The position numbers and the translations under genes are program-made. From a virus (lineage: Duplodnaviria; Heunggongvirae; Uroviricota; Caudoviricetes), in IMG/VR virus record IMGVR_UViG_2565956725_000004: a stretch of DNA of 44,271 bases; one strand, given 5' to 3'. Positions 1-44,271 of this stretch are shown piece by piece (position 1 is the stretch's first letter; each line of letters starts with the position of its first letter). Under the pieces are notes generated by a model, which had not been told where the DNA came from, did not search any database, and worked only from the letters and a program-made list of their open reading frames with translations.

Positions 1-90
1 TTGCCTCCCCCCCGTTGATGGGTAAAATAGCCGCAATTTTTCGTTTTCAACAAGCGCGGCGCGATGCCGCTTACTCAAGAAGAAAGAATT

Positions 91-165
91 ATGACGTTGT
101 CTCCTTATTTGCAAGAGGTGGCGAAGCACCGCACTTTTGCCATTATTTCTCACCCCAATAATTAA
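91..165 (+). pseudogene. prfC: Truncated 5' fragment of host peptide chain release factor 3 gene (first ~22 codons, then divergent sequence and a stop)
   Basis: ATG at 91 translates [22 protein letters not shown] then NN-stop; this matches the remembered RF3 N-terminus up to the point where RF3 continues with the GTP-binding loop; recall-based, not searched. Confidence 0.6.
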
Positions 166-385
166 GTCCAAATTAAAGCTCTTTCACTCTTTCAAAATCC
201 TTTCGGTTAATTGAGGTCGAGCTATATAACTCATTTAAATACATTTGGTTATGTGACTTCTTTAATTGAAAATTCTTTCATGTAACTTTAAATCGATCAG
301 GTTGCTTTCATCAAAAATCTGTACATATGCTTGTACATAATGTACAAAGCAGCAGAGGTGTTTTGCGATTTGTACAAGGTGAGTA

Positions 386-1600
386 ATGGCGCTGTCTGAT
401 GCGTGGTTGCGTTCAGTCGTTGGAAAGGAACGTGATAAGGTTTTGGTTAAATCCGATCGTGATGGTCTGTCTGTCAGAGTATCACCGAAAGGTCGCGTAG
501 TGTTCCAATATCGTTATCAATGGGCAGGGAAAGGTGAGCGTCTTGATATCGGAACTTACCCGGCAACTGGATTAAAAGAGGCCAGAGAAGAAGTTATTCG
601 TCTCCGTGGTGAACTCGAGTCAAACCGTAATCCACGATTGGTCAAGCAGGCTGAAAAACGAAAAGCTACTGAAGCCATGACGGTAGAGTCTGTGATCCGT
701 GCCTGGTATGAAGCATATTGTGTAAAAAATAAAAAAGGTTCTGAACAGATACTCCGCTCGTTTGAGCTGCACCTGTTCTCTAAAATCGGGAATATCCCTC
801 ACGATGCAGCTACATTGCATGATTGGTTAGAAGTCCTGGAGCCTCTTAGCACTAAGACTCCAGCAATAGCAGACCGATTGCTAATTAACGCAAAGCAGGC
901 CCATGTCTGGGCGTATAAGAGAAAGCTCATTGAAACTCGCCCGCTGTCGGATATCACGGGTAAAGATATGGATATCCGTAAAGGTCAGAAGAAACGGTTT
1001 CTGACACATGATGAAATTAAAATCCTTTATGCTGCGATCGATGGTTCTCGAATGGTTCCTAAATACCGGGCCTTCATTAAACTATTGCTTCATTTTGGTT
1101 GCCGTAGTTCAGAGCTAATTACCGCCAGGGTGGACGATTTTGATTTCATTAATAAAGTATGGACTGTACCACCAGAACGACATAAGACTGGGGAGATAAC
1201 AGGCGAACCGCTAAAGCGGCCCATTATTGAACCGGTTGAAGAGCTTATAAAGTACGCTATTTCTATGAACAATGGTTCCGATATGCTTTTTACTAAGGAA
1301 GGAAGCAGGGAACCCGTTGGTCGGACATCATTGCAGTCGCTGCCTTACAATTTAATGCAGTATGCATGGCGGCGTTTGGGTTATCAATTCCCTCATTGGT
1401 CTCTTCATGATTTGAGGCGAACAGCACGAACAAACTTTTCTGATCTTACTGCGCCTCATATTGCAGAAATTATGCTAGGTCATAAACTGCCAGGGGTATG
1501 GCAAGTTTATGACAAGAGCGATTATCTAGAAGAACAGCGTAAAGCCTACCAAGCGTGGTGGGAGAGGGTTGAATCGATCGTTACTTGTACTGGTTCATAA
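386..1600 (+). CDS. int: Tyrosine recombinase, P4-type phage integrase
   Basis: 404-aa ORF; C-terminal HxLRRT-like motif (LHDLRRTARTN) and terminal Tyr region typical of tyrosine recombinases; sits beside the att junction. Confidence 0.9.
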   Translation: MALSDAWLRSVVGKERDKVLVKSDRDGLSVRVSPKGRVVFQYRYQWAGKGERLDIGTYPATGLKEAREEVIRLRGELESNRNPRLVKQAEKRKATEAMTVESVIRAWYEAYCVKNKKGSEQILRSFELHLFSKIGNIPHDAATLHDWLEVLEPLSTKTPAIADRLLINAKQAHVWAYKRKLIETRPLSDITGKDMDIRKGQKKRFLTHDEIKILYAAIDGSRMVPKYRAFIKLLLHFGCRSSELITARVDDFDFINKVWTVPPERHKTGEITGEPLKRPIIEPVEELIKYAISMNNGSDMLFTKEGSREPVGRTSLQSLPYNLMQYAWRRLGYQFPHWSLHDLRRTARTNFSDLTAPHIAEIMLGHKLPGVWQVYDKSDYLEEQRKAYQAWWERVESIVTCTGS

Positions 1601-3344: not shown

Positions 3345-3539
3345 TTACTCAATCACTCCAGCAAACCTATATATCTTGTGTGACGCCCATTTATTTGGGC
3401 ATGATTTAATATCAGGATCTGGAAAATCAGGCCTGTATTTCTGGCCAGTTCTCCAGTTTACGCTGTTCCAGCGAAGAACTGTCGATACTGAAACGCCACA
3501 GAAGTCGGCGACTTGTTTAGTTGTCATTAAGTTGTTCAT
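3345..3539 (-). CDS. xis: Excisionase / AlpA-TorI-like small DNA-binding protein
   Basis: 64-aa ORF with HTH-like segment (TTKQVADFCGVSVSTVLRW); positioned between integrase and early-left genes. Confidence 0.7.
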   Translation of the reverse strand: MNNLMTTKQVADFCGVSVSTVLRWNSVNWRTGQKYRPDFPDPDIKSCPNKWASHKIYRFAGVIE

Positions 3540-35100: not shown

Positions 35101-35669
35101 AAACGGGGGCTGAAGCCATCCGCGCACTGGCCACACAGCTCCCGGTGTTTCGTCAGAAACTGAGCGACGGCTGGTATCAGGTACGGATTGCCGGGCGGGA
35201 CGTCAGCACGTCCGGGTTAACGGCGCAGTTACATGAGACTCTGCCTGATGGCGCTGTGATTCATATTGTTCCCAGAGTCGCCGGGGCCAAGTCAGGTGGC
35301 GTATTCCAGATTGTCCTGGGGGCTGCCGCCATTGCCGGATCATTCTTTACCGCCGGAGCCACCCTTGCAGCATGGGGGGCAGCCATTGGGGCCGGTGGTA
35401 TGACCGGCATCCTGTTTTCTCTCGGTGCCAGTATGGTGCTCGGTGGTGTGGCGCAGATGCTGGCACCGAAAGCCAGAACTCCCCGTACACAGACAACGGA
35501 TAACGGCAAACAGAACACGTATTTCTCCTCACTGGATAACATGGTTGCCCAGGGCAATGTTCTGCCCGTTCTGTACGGTGAAATGCGCGTGGGGTCACGC
35601 GTGGTTTCTCAGGAGATCAGCACGGCAGACGAAGGGGACGGTGGTCAGGTTGTGGTGATTGGTCGCTGA
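34998..35669 (+). CDS. I: Tail assembly protein I
   Basis: 223 aa; MAATHTLPLASPGMARICLYGDLQRFGRRIDL matches lambda I; overlaps the end of K as in lambda. Confidence 0.9.
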   Translation: MAATHTLPLASPGMARICLYGDLQRFGRRIDLRVKTGAEAIRALATQLPVFRQKLSDGWYQVRIAGRDVSTSGLTAQLHETLPDGAVIHIVPRVAGAKSGGVFQIVLGAAAIAGSFFTAGATLAAWGAAIGAGGMTGILFSLGASMVLGGVAQMLAPKARTPRTQTTDNGKQNTYFSSLDNMVAQGNVLPVLYGEMRVGSRVVSQEISTADEGDGGQVVVIGR

Positions 35670-35729
35670 TGCAAAATGTTTTATGTGAAACCGCCTGCGG
35701 GCGGTTTTGTCGTTTATGGAGCGTGAGGA

Positions 35730-38700
35730 ATGGGTAAAGGCAGCAGTAAGGGGCATACCCCGCGCGAAGCGAAGGACAACCTGAAGTCCACGCAGTTGCT
35801 GAGTGTGATCGATGCCATCAGCGAAGGGCCGGTTGAAGGTCCGGTGGAGGGATTAAAAAGCGTGCTGCTGAACAGTACGCCGGTGCTGGACACTGAGGGG
35901 AATACCAACATATCCGGTGTCACGGTGGTGTTCCGTGCCGGTGAGCAGGAGCAGACACCGCCGGAGGGGTTTGAATCCTCCGGCTCCGAGACGGTGCTCG
36001 GTACAGAAGTGAAATATGACACGCCGATCACCCGGACCATCACGTCGGCAAACATCGACCGTCTGCGCTTTACCTTCGGTGTACAGGCACTGGTGGAAAC
36101 CACCTCAAAGGGTGACAGGAATCCGTCGGAAGTCCGCCTGCTGGTTCAGATACAGCGTAATGGTGGCTGGGTGACGGAAAAAGACATCACCATTAAAGGC
36201 AAAACCACCTCACAGTATCTGGCATCGGTGGTGGTGGGTAACCTGCCGCCGCGCCCGTTCAATATCCGGATGCGCAGGATGACGCCGGACAGCACCACAG
36301 ACCAGCTGCAGAACAAAACGCTCTGGTCGTCATACACCGAAATCATCGATGTGAAACAGTGCTACCCGAACACGGCACTGGTCGGCGTACAGGTGGATTC
36401 GGAGCAGTTCGGCAGCCAGCAGGTGAGCCGTAATTATCATCTGCGCGGGCGTATTCTGCAGGTGCCGTCGAACTATAACCCGCAGATGCGGCAATACAGC
36501 GGTATCTGGGACGGAACGTTTAAGCCAGCATACAGCAATAACATGGCCTGGTGTCTGTGGGATATGCTGACCCATCCACGCTACGGCATGGGGAAACGTC
36601 TTGGTGCGGCGGATGTGGACAAATGGGCGCTGTATGTCATCGGCCAGTACTGCGACCAGTCAGTGCCGGACGGCTTTGGCGGCACGGAGCCGCGCATCAC
36701 CTGTAATGCGTACCTGACCACACAGCGCAAGGCGTGGGATGTGCTCAGTGATTTCTGCTCGGCGATGCGCTGTATGCCGGTATGGAACGGGCAGACGCTG
36801 ACGTTCGTGCAGGACCGACCGTCGGATAAGGTGTGGACCTATAACCGCAGTAATGTGGTGATGCCGGATGATGGCGCGCCGTTCCGCTACAGCTTCAGCG
36901 CCCTGAAAGACCGCCATAATGCCGTTGAGGTGAACTGGATTGACCCGAACAACGGCTGGGAGACGGCGACAGAGCTTGTGGAGGATACGCAGGCCATTGC
37001 CCGTTACGGTCGTAACGTCACGAAGATGGATGCTTTTGGCTGTACCAGCCGGGGGCAGGCACACCGCGCCGGGCTGTGGCTGATTAAAACAGAACTGCTG
37101 GAAACGCAGACCGTGGACTTCAGCGTGGGTGCAGAAGGGCTTCGCCATGTACCGGGCGATGTCATTGAAATCTGTGATGATGACTATGCGGGGATCAGCA
37201 TCGGCGGGCGCGTGCTGGCGGTGAACAACCAGACGCGGACACTGACGCTCGACCGTGAAATCACGCTGCCATCCTCCGGCACCACGCTGATAAGCCTGGC
37301 TGACGGACAGGGGAATCCGGTCAGCGTGGAGGTCCAGTCCGTCACCGACGGCGTGAAGGTAAAAGTGAGCCGTGTTCCTGACGGCGTTGCAGAATACAGC
37401 GTGTGGGGGCTGAAGTTGCCAACGTTGCGCCAGCGCCTGTTCCGCTGTGTGAGTATCCGTGAGAACGATGACGGCACGTATGCCATCACTGCCGTGCAGC
37501 ATGTACCGGAAAAAGAGGCCATCGTGGATAACGGGGCGCACTTTGACGGCGACCAGAGCGGAACGGTAAACGGTGTCACGCCGCCAGCGGTGCAGCACCT
37601 GACCGCAGAAGTCACCGCAGACAGCGGGGAATACCAGGTGCTGGCGCGCTGGGACACACCGAAGGTGGTGAAGGGGGTGAGCTTCCTGCTTCGCCTGACC
37701 GTAACAGCGGACGACGGCAGTGAGCGGCTGGTCAGCACGGCCCGGACGACGGAAACCACATACCGCTTCAGGCAACTGGCGCTGGGGCGTTACACGCTGA
37801 CGGTCCGGGCGGTAAATGCGTGGGGACAGCAGGGCGATCCGGCATCGGTATCGTTCCGGATTGCCGCACCGGCAGCGCCGTCGCGGATTGAGCTGACGCC
37901 GGGCTATTTTCAGATAACCGCCACGCCGCATCTTGCGGTTTATGATCCGACGGTACAGTTTGAGTTCTGGTTCTCGGAAAAGCGGATTGCGGATATCAGG
38001 CAGGTTGAAACCACAGCCCGCTATCTTGGCACGGCGCTGTACTGGATAGCCGCCAGTATCAATATCAAACCGGGCCATGATTATTATTTTTACGTTCGCA
38101 GTGTGAACACCGTCGGCAAATCGACATTCGTGGAGGCTGTCGGTCAGCCGAGTGATGACGCATCCGGCTATCTGGATTTTTTCAAAGGAGAGATAGGAAA
38201 AACACACCTGGCTCAGGAGTTGTGGACGCAGATTGATAACGGTCAGCTTGCGCCTGACCTGGCTGAAATCAGGACATCCATTACGGGTGTCAGCAATGAA
38301 ATCACGCAGACCGTCAATAAGAAACTGGAAGACCAGAGTGCAGCGATCCAGCAGATACAGAAGGTTCAGGTTGATACAAATAATAACCTGAACAGCATGT
38401 GGGCTGTGAAGCTGCAGCAGATGCAGGACGGACGCCTTTATATCGCGGGTATCGGTGCCGGTATTGAGAACACCCCCGACGGTATGCAGAGTCAGGTGCT
38501 GCTGGCGGCAGACAGGATTGCGATGATTAATCCTGCGAATGGCAACACAAAGCCGATGTTTGTTGGGCAGGGCGATCAGATATTCATGAACGAAGTGTTC
38601 CTGAAATATCTGACGGCTCCCACCATTACCAGCGGTGGCAATCCCCCAACGTTTTCACTGACACCTGACGGGCGACTGACGGCGAAAAATGCGGATATCA

Positions 38701-39212
38701 GCGGTAACGTGAACGCGAACTCCGGGACGCTCAACAACGTCACGATTAATCAGAACTGTCGGATTCTGGGAAAACTGTCAGCTAACCAGATTGAAGGTGA
38801 TATTGTCAAAACGGTGGGAAAAGCCTTTCCGAGAAATGGCAGTTATGCCAGCGGTACAATAACGGTCACTGTGTACGATGACCAGGCTTTTGACCGTCAG
38901 ATAGTAATCCCCCCCGTTCTGTTTCGCGGTGGTAAGCATGAAAACTTCAACAGCAACAACCAACAGTCATACTGGTATTCAACCTGTAAGCTGCAGGTGC
39001 TGAAGAACGGACAGGAAATCTTTCAGCAACCCGCGACGGATGTCAGCAGGGTATTTTCATCAGTCATTGATATGCCTGCCGGACACGGCCATGTCACCCT
39101 GACTTTCAATGTTTCTTCATATGGTGCTAATAACTGGACGCCAACGACCAGTATCAGCGACCTTCTTGTTGTTGTGATGAAGAAATCTACAGCTGGTATC
39201 AGTATCAGTTGA
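35730..39212 (+). CDS. J: Host specificity / central tail fibre protein J
   Basis: 1160-aa ORF, N-terminal and central regions lambda-J-like; C-terminal receptor-binding region not compared. Confidence 0.95.
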
Positions 39213-39264
39213 ATTTTATAACCCAGATACGGGTGCCAGAAATGGCGCCTTTTTTATTTGTGGA

Positions 39265-41331
39265 GTGAATATGGCAGTACAGATTTCAGGCGTGCTGAAA
39301 GACGGTGCAGGAAAACCGATACAGAACTGCACCATTCAGCTCAAAGCAAAACGTAACAGCACCACGGTTGTGGTGAACACGGTGGCCTCAGAAAATCCGG
39401 ATGAAGCCGGACGTTACAGCATGGATGTCGAGTATGGCCAGTACAGCGTTATCCTGCTGGTTGAAGGTTTTCCGCCTTCACATGCCGGGACCATCACCGT
39501 GTATGAGGATTCTAAGCCGGGGACGCTGAATGATTTTCTGGGTGCCATGACGGAAGAGGATGTCATGCCGGAGGCATTGCGTCGTTTTGAGGTAATGGTG
39601 GAGGATGTGGCACGCAACGCTGAAGCCGCCTCTCAGAGCGCAGCGGCAGCAAAGAAATCAGAAACAGCAGCGGCATCGTCCAGGAACGCGGCGAAAACAT
39701 CAGAGACGAATGCAGGTAACAGCGCGAAAGCGGCAGCTTCTTCAAAAACAGCCGCACAAAACGCAGCAACAGCGGCAGAACGTTCAGAGACAAATGCCCG
39801 TGCGTCAGAAGAAGCCTCCGCAGACAGTGAAGAGGCTTCCCGCCGTAATGCAGAGTCAGCCGCTGAAAATGCCGGAGTCGCCACCACAAAAGCGCGGGAG
39901 GCTGCAGCAGACGCAACAAAGGCCGGGCAGAAAAAGGATGAGGCTCTGTCGGCAGCGACACGAGCTGAAAAGGCGGCAGACCGCGCAGAAGCCGCAGCGG
40001 AAGTGACTGCAGAGCCCTATGCGAATATAGTGCCGCCGCTGCCTGATGTGTGGATACCGTTTAACGATTCACTGGATATGATTGCGGGTTTTTCTCCGGG
40101 CTATAAAAAAATAGCTATTGGTGACGATGTGGTTCAGGTCGCCAGTGATAAACAGGTTAATTTCAGTCGCGCATCAACGGCAACATATATCAACAAATCT
40201 GGCGAACTGAAAACGGCGGAAATTAATGAGCCGCGATTTGAGTGTGATGGCCTGCTTATTGAGGGACAAAGAACGAACTACATGCTCAATTCGGAAAGTC
40301 CAGCCAGCTGGGGGAAGTCATCAAACATGGATGTGCCCGAAACCGGGACGGATAGTTTTGGTTTTACTTATGGAAAGTTTGTCTGCAACGATTCTCTGGT
40401 TGGGCAAACTTCGGCTATTAATATGGCATCAATTGCTGCAACAAAGTCAGTTGATGTCTCAGGCGATAATAAGTACGTGACAACCTCATGCCGTTTTAAA
40501 ACAGAACGACAGGTAAGGTTACGTATACGGTTTGATAAGTATGATGGTAGTGCAACAACTTTTCTTGGCGATGCGTACATTGATACGCAAACGCTTGAAA
40601 TTAATATGACAGGTGGTGCTGCCGGCAGAATTACGGCACGAGTCAGGAAGGATAAGACCACAGGCTGGATTTTTGCAGAGGCAACGATTCAGGCAATTGA
40701 TGGTGAGTTAAAAATAGGCTCTCAGATACAGTATTCTCCTGAGCGGGGTGGGGCAACAGTATCTGGTGACTATATTTATCTTGCCACCCCACAAGTAGAG
40801 AATGGGCCGTGTGTATCATCATTTATTATTTCAGGAGGCAGCGCAACGACAAGAGCCAGTGATTTGGTTAGTATCCCCACCAGAAATAATCTTTATAAGT
40901 TACCATTTACTTTTTCACTTGAGATTCATAAAAACTGGGATATTGCACCAAACGCCGCACCCCGCGTGTGGGATATAGCAGCAGCCAATACCGGGCAATC
41001 AGCAATTGCAGCAATCAACAGAGGTAGTGGTAAGTTATATATGAGTCTGTCAAACCCTTCAGGCTCGTATGTTAATAGCGCAGCGACAGATGTATTTGCA
41101 GAGAAAACCACATTTGGATGTATTGCAAAAGCTGATGGTTACTTTCATGTGGTGACAAATGGTAAAGCGGTTAATGAAGTTTATTGTGAATATAATGGCG
41201 TGACCGCTGATAAAAATATCCGATTTGGAGGGCAGACGAATACTGGAGAACGACATCTGTTTGGCCATATTCGCAATTTCCGCATATGGCATAAAGAATT
41301 AAATGACAGGCAATTAAAAGAGGTCGTATGA
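39265..41331 (+). CDS. stf: Side tail fibre protein (lambda Stf-like N-terminus, Ala-rich shaft, divergent C-terminal lectin-like domain)
   Basis: N-terminus MAVQISGVLKDGAGKPIQNCTIQLKAKRNSTTVVVNT matches lambda Stf; C-terminus (HLFGHIRNFRIWHKELNDRQLKE) resembles LamG/concanavalin-like domain endings. Confidence 0.8.
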   Translation: MNMAVQISGVLKDGAGKPIQNCTIQLKAKRNSTTVVVNTVASENPDEAGRYSMDVEYGQYSVILLVEGFPPSHAGTITVYEDSKPGTLNDFLGAMTEEDVMPEALRRFEVMVEDVARNAEAASQSAAAAKKSETAAASSRNAAKTSETNAGNSAKAAASSKTAAQNAATAAERSETNARASEEASADSEEASRRNAESAAENAGVATTKAREAAADATKAGQKKDEALSAATRAEKAADRAEAAAEVTAEPYANIVPPLPDVWIPFNDSLDMIAGFSPGYKKIAIGDDVVQVASDKQVNFSRASTATYINKSGELKTAEINEPRFECDGLLIEGQRTNYMLNSESPASWGKSSNMDVPETGTDSFGFTYGKFVCNDSLVGQTSAINMASIAATKSVDVSGDNKYVTTSCRFKTERQVRLRIRFDKYDGSATTFLGDAYIDTQTLEINMTGGAAGRITARVRKDKTTGWIFAEATIQAIDGELKIGSQIQYSPERGGATVSGDYIYLATPQVENGPCVSSFIISGGSATTRASDLVSIPTRNNLYKLPFTFSLEIHKNWDIAPNAAPRVWDIAAANTGQSAIAAINRGSGKLYMSLSNPSGSYVNSAATDVFAEKTTFGCIAKADGYFHVVTNGKAVNEVYCEYNGVTADKNIRFGGQTNTGERHLFGHIRNFRIWHKELNDRQLKEVV

Positions 41332-41606
41332 AAGATTTAACTTTGAAGTTTCATGACTAACTGCAGTTTAAGGCCTTCCTGTCATCTCTTGGCTGGGCGG
41401 AAGATGAAGACCTCCAGAATAAACTGTTAGTTGATGAAATTGGTTTCACCTACACAGAAACAGGGGTAACAGAAGAGGGAGAACCTGTCTGTATCCGGAA
41501 TGATGGTTATTTTGTCAACATTCGCATTCTTGATGACTTGTTTGATGTTTCTGTATTCTCTGATTATGTCGTGGAGCTGGAAACACCGCTTCGGGAATGG
41601 AGCTGA
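41328..41606 (+). pseudogene. Small ORF interrupted by an in-frame TAA after codon 10 (possible nonsense-inactivated gene)
   Basis: ATG at 41328 overlaps the stf stop (ATGA); TAA at 41358..41360; the same frame stays open for 81 more codons to TGA 41604..41606 with no internal ATG. Confidence 0.4.
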
Positions 41607-41618
41607 AAGGAGGAAATA

Positions 41619-41912
41619 ATGGATATAAGCCCCTTACTTCATGCACTTTGTGCTGTGGCTGCGCAGATACTGGTTGGTCTTTTTACCGGAAACTGGGCTT
41701 ACGGAGCGATAGCCGGTTGTACGTTCTTCATTGCGCGTGAACATACCCAGGCAGAATATCGCTGGATTGAAATGTTCGGGCATGGCAAGCGAATGAATAT
41801 GCCGTGGTGGGGTGGTTTTGATCCGCGTGCTTGGGATGTGGCAAGCCTGATGGATTTTGCTGTGCCGGTGGTGGCGTGTCTGCTGGTCTGGGTATTTATC
41901 CGTTCAACATAA
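41619..41912 (+). CDS. Hypothetical small inner-membrane protein
   Basis: 97-aa ORF with strong AAAGGAGG ribosome-binding site; hydrophobic helices at both ends. Confidence 0.55.
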   Translation: MDISPLLHALCAVAAQILVGLFTGNWAYGAIAGCTFFIAREHTQAEYRWIEMFGHGKRMNMPWWGGFDPRAWDVASLMDFAVPVVACLLVWVFIRST

Positions 41913-42253
41913 AAAGTCGCAGCAACTTGTCATGGCGGAATACTGCGGCTTGCTGGCGAACCTTTGATAGTTCGGGTATTGAATAATTTCCAGCCATTAC
42001 TGATTTTATGTATTTTTTGCATGAGAGGATTTGCTCCTCCTTACACCGAGCTTACATGATTACACGCTACTGTTTTAGGTGTGCTATGTGCCAGAAGTAG
42101 ACATAGTTTTATCTTACTTTATGTACAATAAGCTAAGAACTTACTTGCGCACTATTTCTGTTAGGTAGTATGAAAAAAATGGGAGTATATTCAATTAGGT
42201 ATAAACAGGAGTTTCTGATGCATCAGACATATCTTGGATAATTGGATGTTGAT

Positions 42254-42280
42254 TGATCAGGGTTGCAGCAACCCTGATCA
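42254..42280. repeat. Near-perfect 27-bp palindrome (13-bp arms, 1-nt centre) downstream of the OLD-family gene
   Basis: TGATCAGGGTTGC-A-GCAACCCTGATCA; a second perfect 14-bp palindrome TCTGATGCATCAGA lies at 42214..42227. Confidence 0.5.
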
Positions 42281-42387
42281 GAAATTTCATATTGCTAAAT
42301 TTAACTCTTATTAATTAATGGAACCATATCACTAATATCCAATATAATTGTAACTTTAAAAGTTACGATAATATAGATTTTAAATTT

Positions 42388-44271
42388 TTACTCCTGAATT
42401 CCTGGTAATACTTCCGGTATAATGGTAATTGGGTTTTGGGATGGGGAGATTTCAAATGGGAAAGTCGTACGCTCAAACAATGGTGAGACTATATCAACTT
42501 TAAGCTTAAGCTGTTGCTCAGTAGATTTATTCGTTAATTTGAATACTGTTGCATCAACCCCGATGGTAGATCTAGCTAGTGTATCAAGTTCTTGATCGCT
42601 ACTGTTCAATGTCATTTCAAGCATCACTGGTGTCAACATAGCACCGAGCTTCATACGAAGGAGACGATCTTCATCGACAAACTGATTTGGAGCCGTATGA
42701 TTTAAGGCATCATAAATATCATTATAACACATTGCAAGTTCTTTCTGAGTTTTAGCATCAAATCCAGCAGCTTCTAGTGCAGCACGATCTGGTTTTCCAG
42801 TTCCAATTTCTTCTATCGTCCCGTAATAGTTTTCAATTGCTCCTCGACGTAAAAAAAAGCACCCAAGATTACTTAATGCCTTCAAAAGCACATTGTATTT
42901 TCTACAAAGACTTTCGGCTCGAGAAGATGCTTCTGTACCAAAGCTTGTTGGATCAGTAAGAATACGAGCTAACGTCACGCGACGTTTGCTATCAGCCCCA
43001 GAATCTTTACTTGACCAATTAGGATAACTTTCAGCTGCTATCTCAACCTCTTCCTTAAAGTCAGTCATGAAGGTTGTAATTTCTGCACGCAAATCTCTGT
43101 CAAGATCAGCGAGACTTGTTCTTCCGACTTGGTCTGCAATCGCCCTAGCTTCTGTTAATCCACTGAAATAGTTGACTAAATTATTATCGTCAGCTAAGGC
43201 GTCGAGATCTGCAAGCAAACTAACTCGTTTATTCATCAAGCGAAACAGTTTGGCAGCTTCGATAAACTCTCCCTTACCAGTAACTGGAAGTATCTGAGCA
43301 TTACGTGCAAGGAGACGGAGACCGAACTTTCTTGCAAGTTGTGTTACTATTATTTCATCACTAGGACCTTCGACTAATAAAACATGCTCAGCGAACATAG
43401 CTGTTCGATGGGTAGCGCTAAGGCGTGCTATTAATGCGGCCAGTTTTGTGCTGCAAAGAATATCTGCATTTTTTGGTATCTGAACTGGAGGTTGCTGTGC
43501 GGAGTTGAAAAAGATTATTTTTGATAACTCTTCAATTCGTCGCAGCGGTAGTATTGAAGGTGAATGTGTCGCTATGATTATCATTTTTTTCTTTGGATTT
43601 TGAGGATCACCGGCTACCAGTTCCATCTCTTCGAGCAGAAATGCTTGATGCTGTGGGTGTAGGGAGATTTCTGGCTCATCGATAATCAATGCACCTATTT
43701 CGTCATTATGAATTGCAGTTAGTAACGAGACAACCTGCAGTATACCGCTGGCTTCGTGATTAGCTGCGTAGCCATCGCCGCCAGTGACGGATGTTATTCT
43801 AATAGTCATTCCATTTTGAGACCACTTGAGCTCAACGCTTCGATCAAACAACTGCTGTAGGCGTGCTTCAATCTTTAGTTTGAGGTCTGGTCTCTGGTCT
43901 AAGATCATTAAGTCACCAGTAACACTTTCATAATTCCACCATTGCTCAACGTAACTCGCGTTTCCAATAGCAGCATCGCTAGAATTGATGCCATAAGGAG
44001 AATCTGAGCTAGATCTATAGGATTCAAATGGACTACACCGTCCTGCCGAAAGAAAATGTACTTTTCTATTTTGTCCAATTATTCGGTTTTCACTCAATAA
44101 TTTTGATTTTATTGCACGCAGTGCTCGGGTTTTACCACTACCATTTGGCCCGACCATCGTTGTAATACCTGGTCCGACTTGTATTATCGCTTTTGTGGAT
44201 GAATTATCGACTAATGAATATTCAACGTCCATCGGCCACATAAGGTCTTGATCTGCAGTATCTAAGCTCAT
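42388..44271 (-). CDS. OLD-family nuclease (N-terminal ABC-type ATPase, C-terminal Toprim domain); N-terminus at window edge
   Basis: Walker A GPNGSGKT, Walker B ALIIDEPEISLHP, ATHSP, then Toprim-like LLVEGPSDE and DLDALADD; A+T-rich codon usage; the ORF reaches the last base of the window, so the true start is unconfirmed. Confidence 0.8.
   Translation of the reverse strand: MSLDTADQDLMWPMDVEYSLVDNSSTKAIIQVGPGITTMVGPNGSGKTRALRAIKSKLLSENRIIGQNRKVHFLSAGRCSPFESYRSSSDSPYGINSSDAAIGNASYVEQWWNYESVTGDLMILDQRPDLKLKIEARLQQLFDRSVELKWSQNGMTIRITSVTGGDGYAANHEASGILQVVSLLTAIHNDEIGALIIDEPEISLHPQHQAFLLEEMELVAGDPQNPKKKMIIIATHSPSILPLRRIEELSKIIFFNSAQQPPVQIPKNADILCSTKLAALIARLSATHRTAMFAEHVLLVEGPSDEIIVTQLARKFGLRLLARNAQILPVTGKGEFIEAAKLFRLMNKRVSLLADLDALADDNNLVNYFSGLTEARAIADQVGRTSLADLDRDLRAEITTFMTDFKEEVEIAAESYPNWSSKDSGADSKRRVTLARILTDPTSFGTEASSRAESLCRKYNVLLKALSNLGCFFLRRGAIENYYGTIEEIGTGKPDRAALEAAGFDAKTQKELAMCYNDIYDALNHTAPNQFVDEDRLLRMKLGAMLTPVMLEMTLNSSDQELDTLARSTIGVDATVFKLTNKSTEQQLKLKVDIVSPLFERTTFPFEISPSQNPITIIPEVLPGIQE

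Follow-up and report, generated by a model that had tools for sequence, protein, structure and literature searches.

The 5' end of prfC, the gene of release factor 3 (RF3), is a described integration site of lambdoid phages as well as of conjugative elements. It has been reported as an Stx-phage site, with the Stx1 phage of an O103 strain showing the same RF3 N-terminal change that is described below and with the native prfC promoter and ribosome-binding site being lost (Ogura 2007, PMC2323221); the prfC site of Stx1a/Stx2c phages has been studied in CC119 STEC (PMC10132054), and the site also appears in reviews. The SXT/R391 ICEs integrate in the 5' end of prfC as well (Hochhut and Waldor 1999, as cited in passages of PMC8409611 and PMC2791158), sharing with the prfC phages both the site and the trick of replacing the 5' end of the gene. 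Membership of SXT/R391 is defined by an Int nearly identical to IntSXT, which the phage discussed here is not known to have, and the integrase of phage cdtI has been placed together with IntSXT in one "SXT cluster" (Smyshlyaev 2021), a published clustering on which the kinship of the phage Int discussed here to IntSXT rests.

Other systems resemble this one in part. The dusA-targeting elements, such as IMEVchUSA3 (PMC8409611), likewise enter a conserved gene at its 5' end, but their target is another one, they are not phages, and for dusA the expression from the new promoter has been measured. Phage 21 and e14, in icd, also carry a copy of the displaced gene end and thereby keep the length of the open reading frame; there, however, it is the 3' end that is duplicated and the host promoter stays in charge, while insertion at prfC exchanges the 5' end along with the start codon and the promoter. 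Gifsy-1 enters lepA, a translational GTPase gene, within its coding sequence and at a site near its 5' end, and is a lead only. Its insertion in lepA of Salmonella is mentioned in a large prophage survey, which also counts prfC among the core genes "disrupted" by integration (Bobay 2013, PMC3603311).

The window analysed here, that is, the whole 44,271-nucleotide stretch of IMG/VR virus record IMGVR_UViG_2565956725_000004, covers the left end of a lambda-like prophage that sits in E. coli prfC at codon 22. With a probability of roughly 0.9, it begins with the attL of a lambdoid prophage that integrated by site-specific recombination in prfC codons 16-22 and rebuilt prfC at its far end. The features on which this reading draws are the following.

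1 to 90, plus strand: spacer between yjjG and prfC, holding the native ribosome-binding site of prfC and a predicted promoter, identical to intact loci
91 to 165, plus strand: prfC 5' stub, 24 codons plus stop; codons 1-22 from the host; the last base of codon 22, the residues NN and the TAA from the phage
132, plus strand: G-to-A change private to this stub, which is non-functional; CGC becomes CAC (R13H); sole mismatch to every compared locus
136 to 155, plus strand: attachment core, 20 bp, TTTGCCATTATTTCTCACCC, common to attL, attR, attB and attP in a four-way alignment
156 to 385, plus strand: phage P' arm of the attachment site; shortly before int, at 320-376, it has four repeats centred on TGTACA
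386 to 1600, plus strand: integrase, 404 aa, tyrosine recombinase of the P4/SXT type, from Pfam domains and phrog_1
3345 to 3539, minus strand: excisionase, 64 aa, phrog_1553 "excisionase" (E = 1e-35), with a weak HTH_17 match
156 to 44271, no strand assigned: lambda-like prophage body, from identity to the annotated Combat2C1 prophage; it leaves the window about 1 kb before attR

According to the mechanism that we propose, window 1-385 would be an attL made by site-specific recombination into prfC. The attP of the phage would carry, in this order, a short imitated prfC start, which comprises a ribosome-binding site, an ATG and 14 codons; a core of 14-20 bp; a stop codon placed two codons past the core; the arm sites; and int. 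An exchange by Int within ATTATTTCTCACCC would strand the host promoter, together with 22 host codons, in a dead stub of 24 codons before int, which is the state seen in the window, and, at the far end, would join the phage-borne start in frame to the remaining prfC, giving an RF3 of 528 aa.

The host side of the junction is well delimited. A preliminary description of this DNA, made from the letters alone, had recognised the N-terminus of RF3 behind the ATG at 91, and residues 1-22 of the stub indeed equal those of RF3 save for R13H. The stub reads, from 91 to 165, ATG ACG TTG TCT CCT TAT TTG CAA GAG GTG GCG AAG CAC CGC ACT TTT GCC ATT ATT TCT CAC CCC AAT AAT TAA, in which 22 of the 24 codons derive from the host (codon 22 with two-thirds of its bases) and two from the phage, with the TAA at 163-165. 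Window 1-155 comprises the spacer between yjjG and prfC and, of prfC itself, the initial 21 and two-thirds codons, with 99.4% identity (E = 2e-72) to the intact spacer and prfC 5' end of E. coli; in the alignment with a K-12-like locus, the identity stops after base 155 and is lost from 156. The alignment to an uninterrupted locus that had been proposed as a check thus matches through base 155, and the departure of the frame from RF3 ahead of the stop at 163-165 was correctly read. The integrase gene that had been placed 220 bp past the stub stop is there too, as the tyrosine integrase frame at 386-1600. All details of the described junction hold.

By megablast, window 1-400 finds matches in 5425 of 5426 complete E. 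coli genomes, most of which cover only window 1-155, on an annotated prfC start; in 701 genomes the full 400 bp are covered, and there the stub is annotated as a "hypothetical protein" and a tyrosine recombinase gene comes next. In Combat2C1, an E. coli lysogen, the equivalent of the stub is an incomplete pseudogene in the RefSeq annotation. The window starts directly after the stop codon of yjjG, and the order rsmC-holD-rimI-yjjG lies upstream both in one occupied and in one empty genome; since this is the order of the uninterrupted locus, there is no intact prfC upstream, the presence of which the preliminary description had named as fatal to its proposal. The substitution at 132 is shared by no intact prfC and by no other occupied site among those compared, and may reflect either relaxed constraint on a dead fragment or a sequencing error.

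Two observations on the neighbourhood of the stub can be added. The native prfC promoter (TTGCCT-16-TAAAAT, at 1-28, by prediction only) points through the stub into int, and window 1-420 contains no terminator-like site; it may be, by way of speculation, that promoters are swapped in the lysogen, with the host promoter driving int and the phage arm driving prfC. A tRNA or another structured RNA as the target was also considered and is ruled out, given that the window has no tRNA gene and that Rfam gives chance-level matches only near the junction.

The attachment core had been estimated at about 140-160, and it maps to 136-155, narrowing to 142-155 in phages with one mismatch in attP. Strand exchange is confined to the latter interval, ATTATTTCTCACCC: the phage side reads TTTGCAATT... 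in cdtI and several lysogens, and the four lysogens examined keep its A in attR, while attL has the host C, which places the exchange within these 14 bp. The same stretch is the 14-bp duplication annotated in Stx2c phage records, and the core extends to 20 bp here because the lineage of the window has GCC, not GCA, at one position. Both ATTATTTCTCACCC and the P' arm are also found in the attP of cdtI and Ayreon and in the attL of Stx2c_EH0430. Regarding the protein, the core covers the I-I-x-H-x codons, just before the P-loop, and the 17-bp attP consensus of SXT/R391, ATcATcTCtCACCCtGA, lies at the same position, matching the E. coli sequence ATTATTTCTCACCCGGA at 14 of 17 positions. An inverted repeat around the overlap, ATTATT-N9-AATAAT, present in attL and attP, was tried as a pair of core-type sites and discarded, as it is not conserved in the Trabulsiella and Pantoea junctions described below.

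As for the arms, TGTACA occurs nine times in the window, which equals the chance expectation, with four of the nine packed into 57 bp at 320-376. The other attP arm has four more, including the same 22-bp unit, TGTACATNTGNTTGTACATAAT, and in attR three of the repeats fall within 70 bp of the start of the hybrid prfC. Repeats of this kind also precede int genes that are 84% (Trabulsiella and Pantoea), 52% (a gammaproteobacterial metagenome bin) and 41% (Moraxella phages) identical to that of the window, and are presumed to be putative arm-type Int binding sites.

The body of the element is that of a phage. The window is colinear to its last base with the Combat2C1 prophage, with an identity of 99.94% over 1-35197 and of 99.39% over 35424-44271; between both, a patch at 35198-35423, in the tail-assembly gene region, does not align with that prophage. 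The Combat2C1 annotation comprises an XRE-type repressor, a Q antiterminator, a holin, a lysozyme and a spanin, as well as a terminase, a portal, a protease-capsid fusion and lambda-like tail genes, together with immunity and replication genes, so that the lambdoid gene content (Q antiterminator, lysis cassette, terminase, portal and long tail) is read from this near-identical, colinear copy. Unlike cdtI and the Stx phages, that copy has no stx or cdt genes in its annotation, and the core is of 20 rather than 14 bp.

The integrase itself contains PF13356 Arm-DNA-bind_3 (E = 1.9e-16), PF22022 Phage_int_M and PF00589 Phage_integrase, the first of which we take to be the domain known as DUF4102. 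It fits the architecture of the IntSXT subgroup, with an N-terminal arm-binding domain of the DUF4102 type and a tyrosine recombinase catalytic domain (Smyshlyaev 2021). It is identical to the Int of cdtI at 399 of 404 residues, and 99.3% and 98.5% identical to those of Ayreon and of an Stx2c phage, respectively. More generally, it is 98-99% identical to the integrases of the prfC-integrating lambdoid phages (cdtI, the Stx1 O103 phage, the CC119 Stx1a/Stx2c phages and Ayreon), and the element shares with phages of the cdtI and Ayreon type the same attL, core and P' arm and, judging from the near-identical Combat2C1 prophage, probably the phage-encoded prfC start. The integrase region is found in 33 phage records at 95-97% DNA identity, among them Stx1a- and Stx2c-converting phages, cdtI, Ayreon and 2H10. 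Beyond E. coli, Trabulsiella guamensis and Pantoea stewartii carry 84%-identical integrases after prfC stubs cut at the same codon, the residues after the junction being |HKT... and |HES..., respectively.

A conjugative element of the SXT/R391 type, or some other genomic island at prfC, in place of a phage would agree with the shared gene, the shared 17-bp position and the shared integrase cluster. Against it, the inserted DNA holds terminase, portal, capsid, tail and lysis genes, the closest integrases come from sequenced phages (Ayreon, cdtI and the Stx1a/Stx2c phages), and neither the conjugation nor the regulation core genes of SXT/R391 are annotated in the element, only phage genes. The lack of annotated conjugation genes makes the element a phage, and the conjugative reading, refuted by gene content, has practically no chance of being right.

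Further genes of the prophage deserve a mention on their own. Directly after int, at 1976-2992 on the minus strand, a frame of 338 aa matches phrog_5157, of unknown function (E = 2.7e-226), and no Pfam or PADLOC family. The stretch between int and xis is a typical spot for cargo genes. On the side proximal to attR, at 42388-44271 on the minus strand, lies a 627-aa OLD-family ATPase-TOPRIM nuclease (Pfam AAA_21 and OLD-like_TOPRIM), at whose start codon the window ends exactly and which the Combat2C1 annotation calls an ATP-dependent nuclease. It matches the PADLOC models of GajA, Old and AriA with E = 1e-17 to 1e-22, and its gene is probably cargo with an anti-phage role.

The distal junction was expected to fall outside the window, which is correct: the window contains no second copy of the core, even with up to three mismatches allowed, and attR therefore lies beyond it. 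In Combat2C1, about 1 kb past the point where the window ends, there is a phage-supplied ATG followed by 14 codons, the 20-bp core and host prfC in frame. The order at this attR is phage-derived ATGACAAGCCTTTTGGCCGCAGAGGTAGCGAAAAGAAGAACC, core and host prfC; a dinI-like gene comes first, then ...caaagagacaacaattATGACAAGCCTTTTGGCCGCAGAGGTAGCGAAAAGAAGAACCTTTGCCATTATTTCTCACCCGGACGCCGGTAAG..., running on as an annotated full-length prfC. A phage-borne prfC start fused to host prfC is present in Combat2C1 and in four other lysogens. In addition, the free phages Ayreon (packaged) and cdtI (circular) have the prfC mimic in their attP, ending in a stop and directly upstream of int, and its presence there means that the replacement start belongs to the phage DNA and does not arise through integration. 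The earlier proposal that the phage brings a replacement 5' end for prfC is thus supported by the attR of Combat2C1 and by the attP of Ayreon and cdtI, and would extend to the genome of the window by way of these relatives. We infer from them that the attR of the window has the same form, in which case it would read dinI-like gene, then ...AATTATGACAAGCCTTTTGGCCGCAGAGGTAGCGAAAAGAAGAACC, core and GGACGCCGGTAAG..., on into a full-length prfC.

The surroundings of this junction show a further peculiarity. Two sites resembling LexA boxes, CTGT-N8-ACAG, were seen by eye over the predicted promoter of the dinI-like gene (L001 48012-48059, about 0.8 kb past the end of the window); the gene is divergent from the rebuilt prfC, and the sites lie 160-200 bp upstream of the rebuilt prfC start.

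In the particular genome from which the window comes, the prophage could also be rearranged or partly deleted, with attR missing and prfC not rebuilt. The window does stop about 1 kb short of the expected attR, and the stub does bear a private mutation; yet the sequence is colinear to its last base, at 99.4-99.9% identity, with a prophage whose attR is complete, and the counts of both ends across complete E. coli genomes are nearly equal (attL in 701 and attR in 692 of 5426, about 13%). Such a loss in this strain has a very slim chance. Where a rebuilt prfC was seen with its annotation, the gene under attR is named prfC in all seven lysogens, Combat2C1 included, and none of the four lysogens opened as annotated regions has a pseudogene flag on the hybrid.

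Taking prfC as rebuilt, what does the hybrid encode? The protein has 528 aa and is identical to the RF3 of K-12 at 521 of 521 residues from Glu9 (E9) on, the change being limited to residues 1-8, where MTLSPYLQ becomes MTSLLAA. Solved RF3 structures of other species align only from about residue 7 of the hybrid, which fits a poorly conserved N-terminal tail. Right after this segment, the mimic and the host gene can be compared codon by codon.

Host prfC, codons 9-15: GAG GTG GCG AAG CGC CGC ACT
Phage mimic, codons 9-15: GAG GTA GCG AAA AGA AGA ACC

They differ at seven nucleotides in five codons, and all differences are synonymous; only 2.5e-5 of random sets of seven substitutions keep the peptide. 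This comparison of mimic and host was used instead of dN/dS, given that the mimic has diverged too little across E. coli phages. Seven synonymous differences out of seven argue that the mimic is under selection to encode RF3 and that the hybrid would be translated, and constitute the best evidence here.

It is with this evidence that a purely disruptive insertion has to be weighed, in which the prophage inactivates prfC, the open reading frame at attR is unexpressed or its product inactive, and the loss is tolerated as RF3 is dispensable. The native promoter and ribosome-binding site are in fact separated from prfC, the survey cited above places prfC among the disrupted genes, and Ogura 2007 (PMC2323221) states that expression of the hybrid is unknown. 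Moreover, prfC is non-essential according to the same study, so that an intact reading frame in lysogens says less about function than it would if the gene were essential. A simple scan of the phage arm on its plus strand, ahead of the hybrid start, returned no consensus sigma-70 promoter; a TACAAT noticed by eye about 60 bp before the hybrid ATG was set aside, since its -35 is poor, and no claim is attached to it. On the other hand, the phage-borne ATG follows an AATT and a purine-rich stretch at native-like spacing, 14 RF3 residues are kept in the mimic through the seven purely synonymous differences, the hybrid goes without a pseudogene flag in the four lysogens mentioned, a Moraxella relative recodes its own target in a like manner, and SXT has been reported to supply a promoter at the prfC site. 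Inactivation by disruption is left with a small chance. On the reading of a rebuilt gene, transcription of the hybrid prfC would start at a promoter within the phage arm, and its product would be an active RF3.

The Moraxella relatives are worth a closer description. Prophages Mcat15-19 of Moraxella catarrhalis have an integrase 41% identical to that of the window. In Mcat19 (984-1049), a host stub, MMPTPSHLTTISIIGHTNDDI-stop, stands just before int, and at the far junction of Mcat17 (37746-39146) a phage-supplied start, MINVNKIKNLTTISIIGHTN, is followed by a 22-bp core, TCTATCATCGGACACACCAATG, and a GTPase of 466 aa; the att sites annotated in both records look misplaced. Whether these phages also target prfC can be answered in the negative, the target being a DUF3482 GTPase gene; a tblastn search with RF3 found no Moraxella records. 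The target GTPase of Mcat17 has the domains MMR_HSR1 and DUF3482, the four codons to the left of the core show synonymous recoding, and TGTACA repeats immediately precede the phage-supplied start. A phage that has a different GTPase target thus shares both the 5'-replacement design and the position of the core on I-I-x-H-x before the P-loop.

A broader idea may be drawn from this, tentative and rather unlikely to be right: the clade of Int and IntSXT would be specialised for the motif ATYATY-NNN-CAC-NCC, which encodes the beta-strand before the GTPase P-loop, and its members would always carry a recoded gene start, with the RF3 of lysogens expressed from a phage arm packed with integrase sites and the host promoter directed into int. 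The presence of a 41%-identical integrase at an unrelated GTPase gene in Moraxella supports the part of this idea that concerns the motif of the clade.

The phenomenon as such is real, ordinary, common and already published, and its significance for annotation is modest. In lysogens of this kind, prfC should be labelled as a rebuilt hybrid and not as disrupted, and the 24-codon frame as an attL remnant and not as a gene; since the sequences considered here show the prfC reading frame rebuilt, counts of disruption such as those of Bobay 2013 overstate gene loss at prfC. The exact core (136-155) can serve in insertion-site typing, because prfC is occupied in about one in eight complete E. coli genomes, including by Stx- and Cdt-converting phages. 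Finally, if the tentative idea of a motif-specialised clade with phage-driven RF3 were true, the level of RF3, and with it the quality control of termination, could depend on the state of a prophage in about 13% of E. coli strains.
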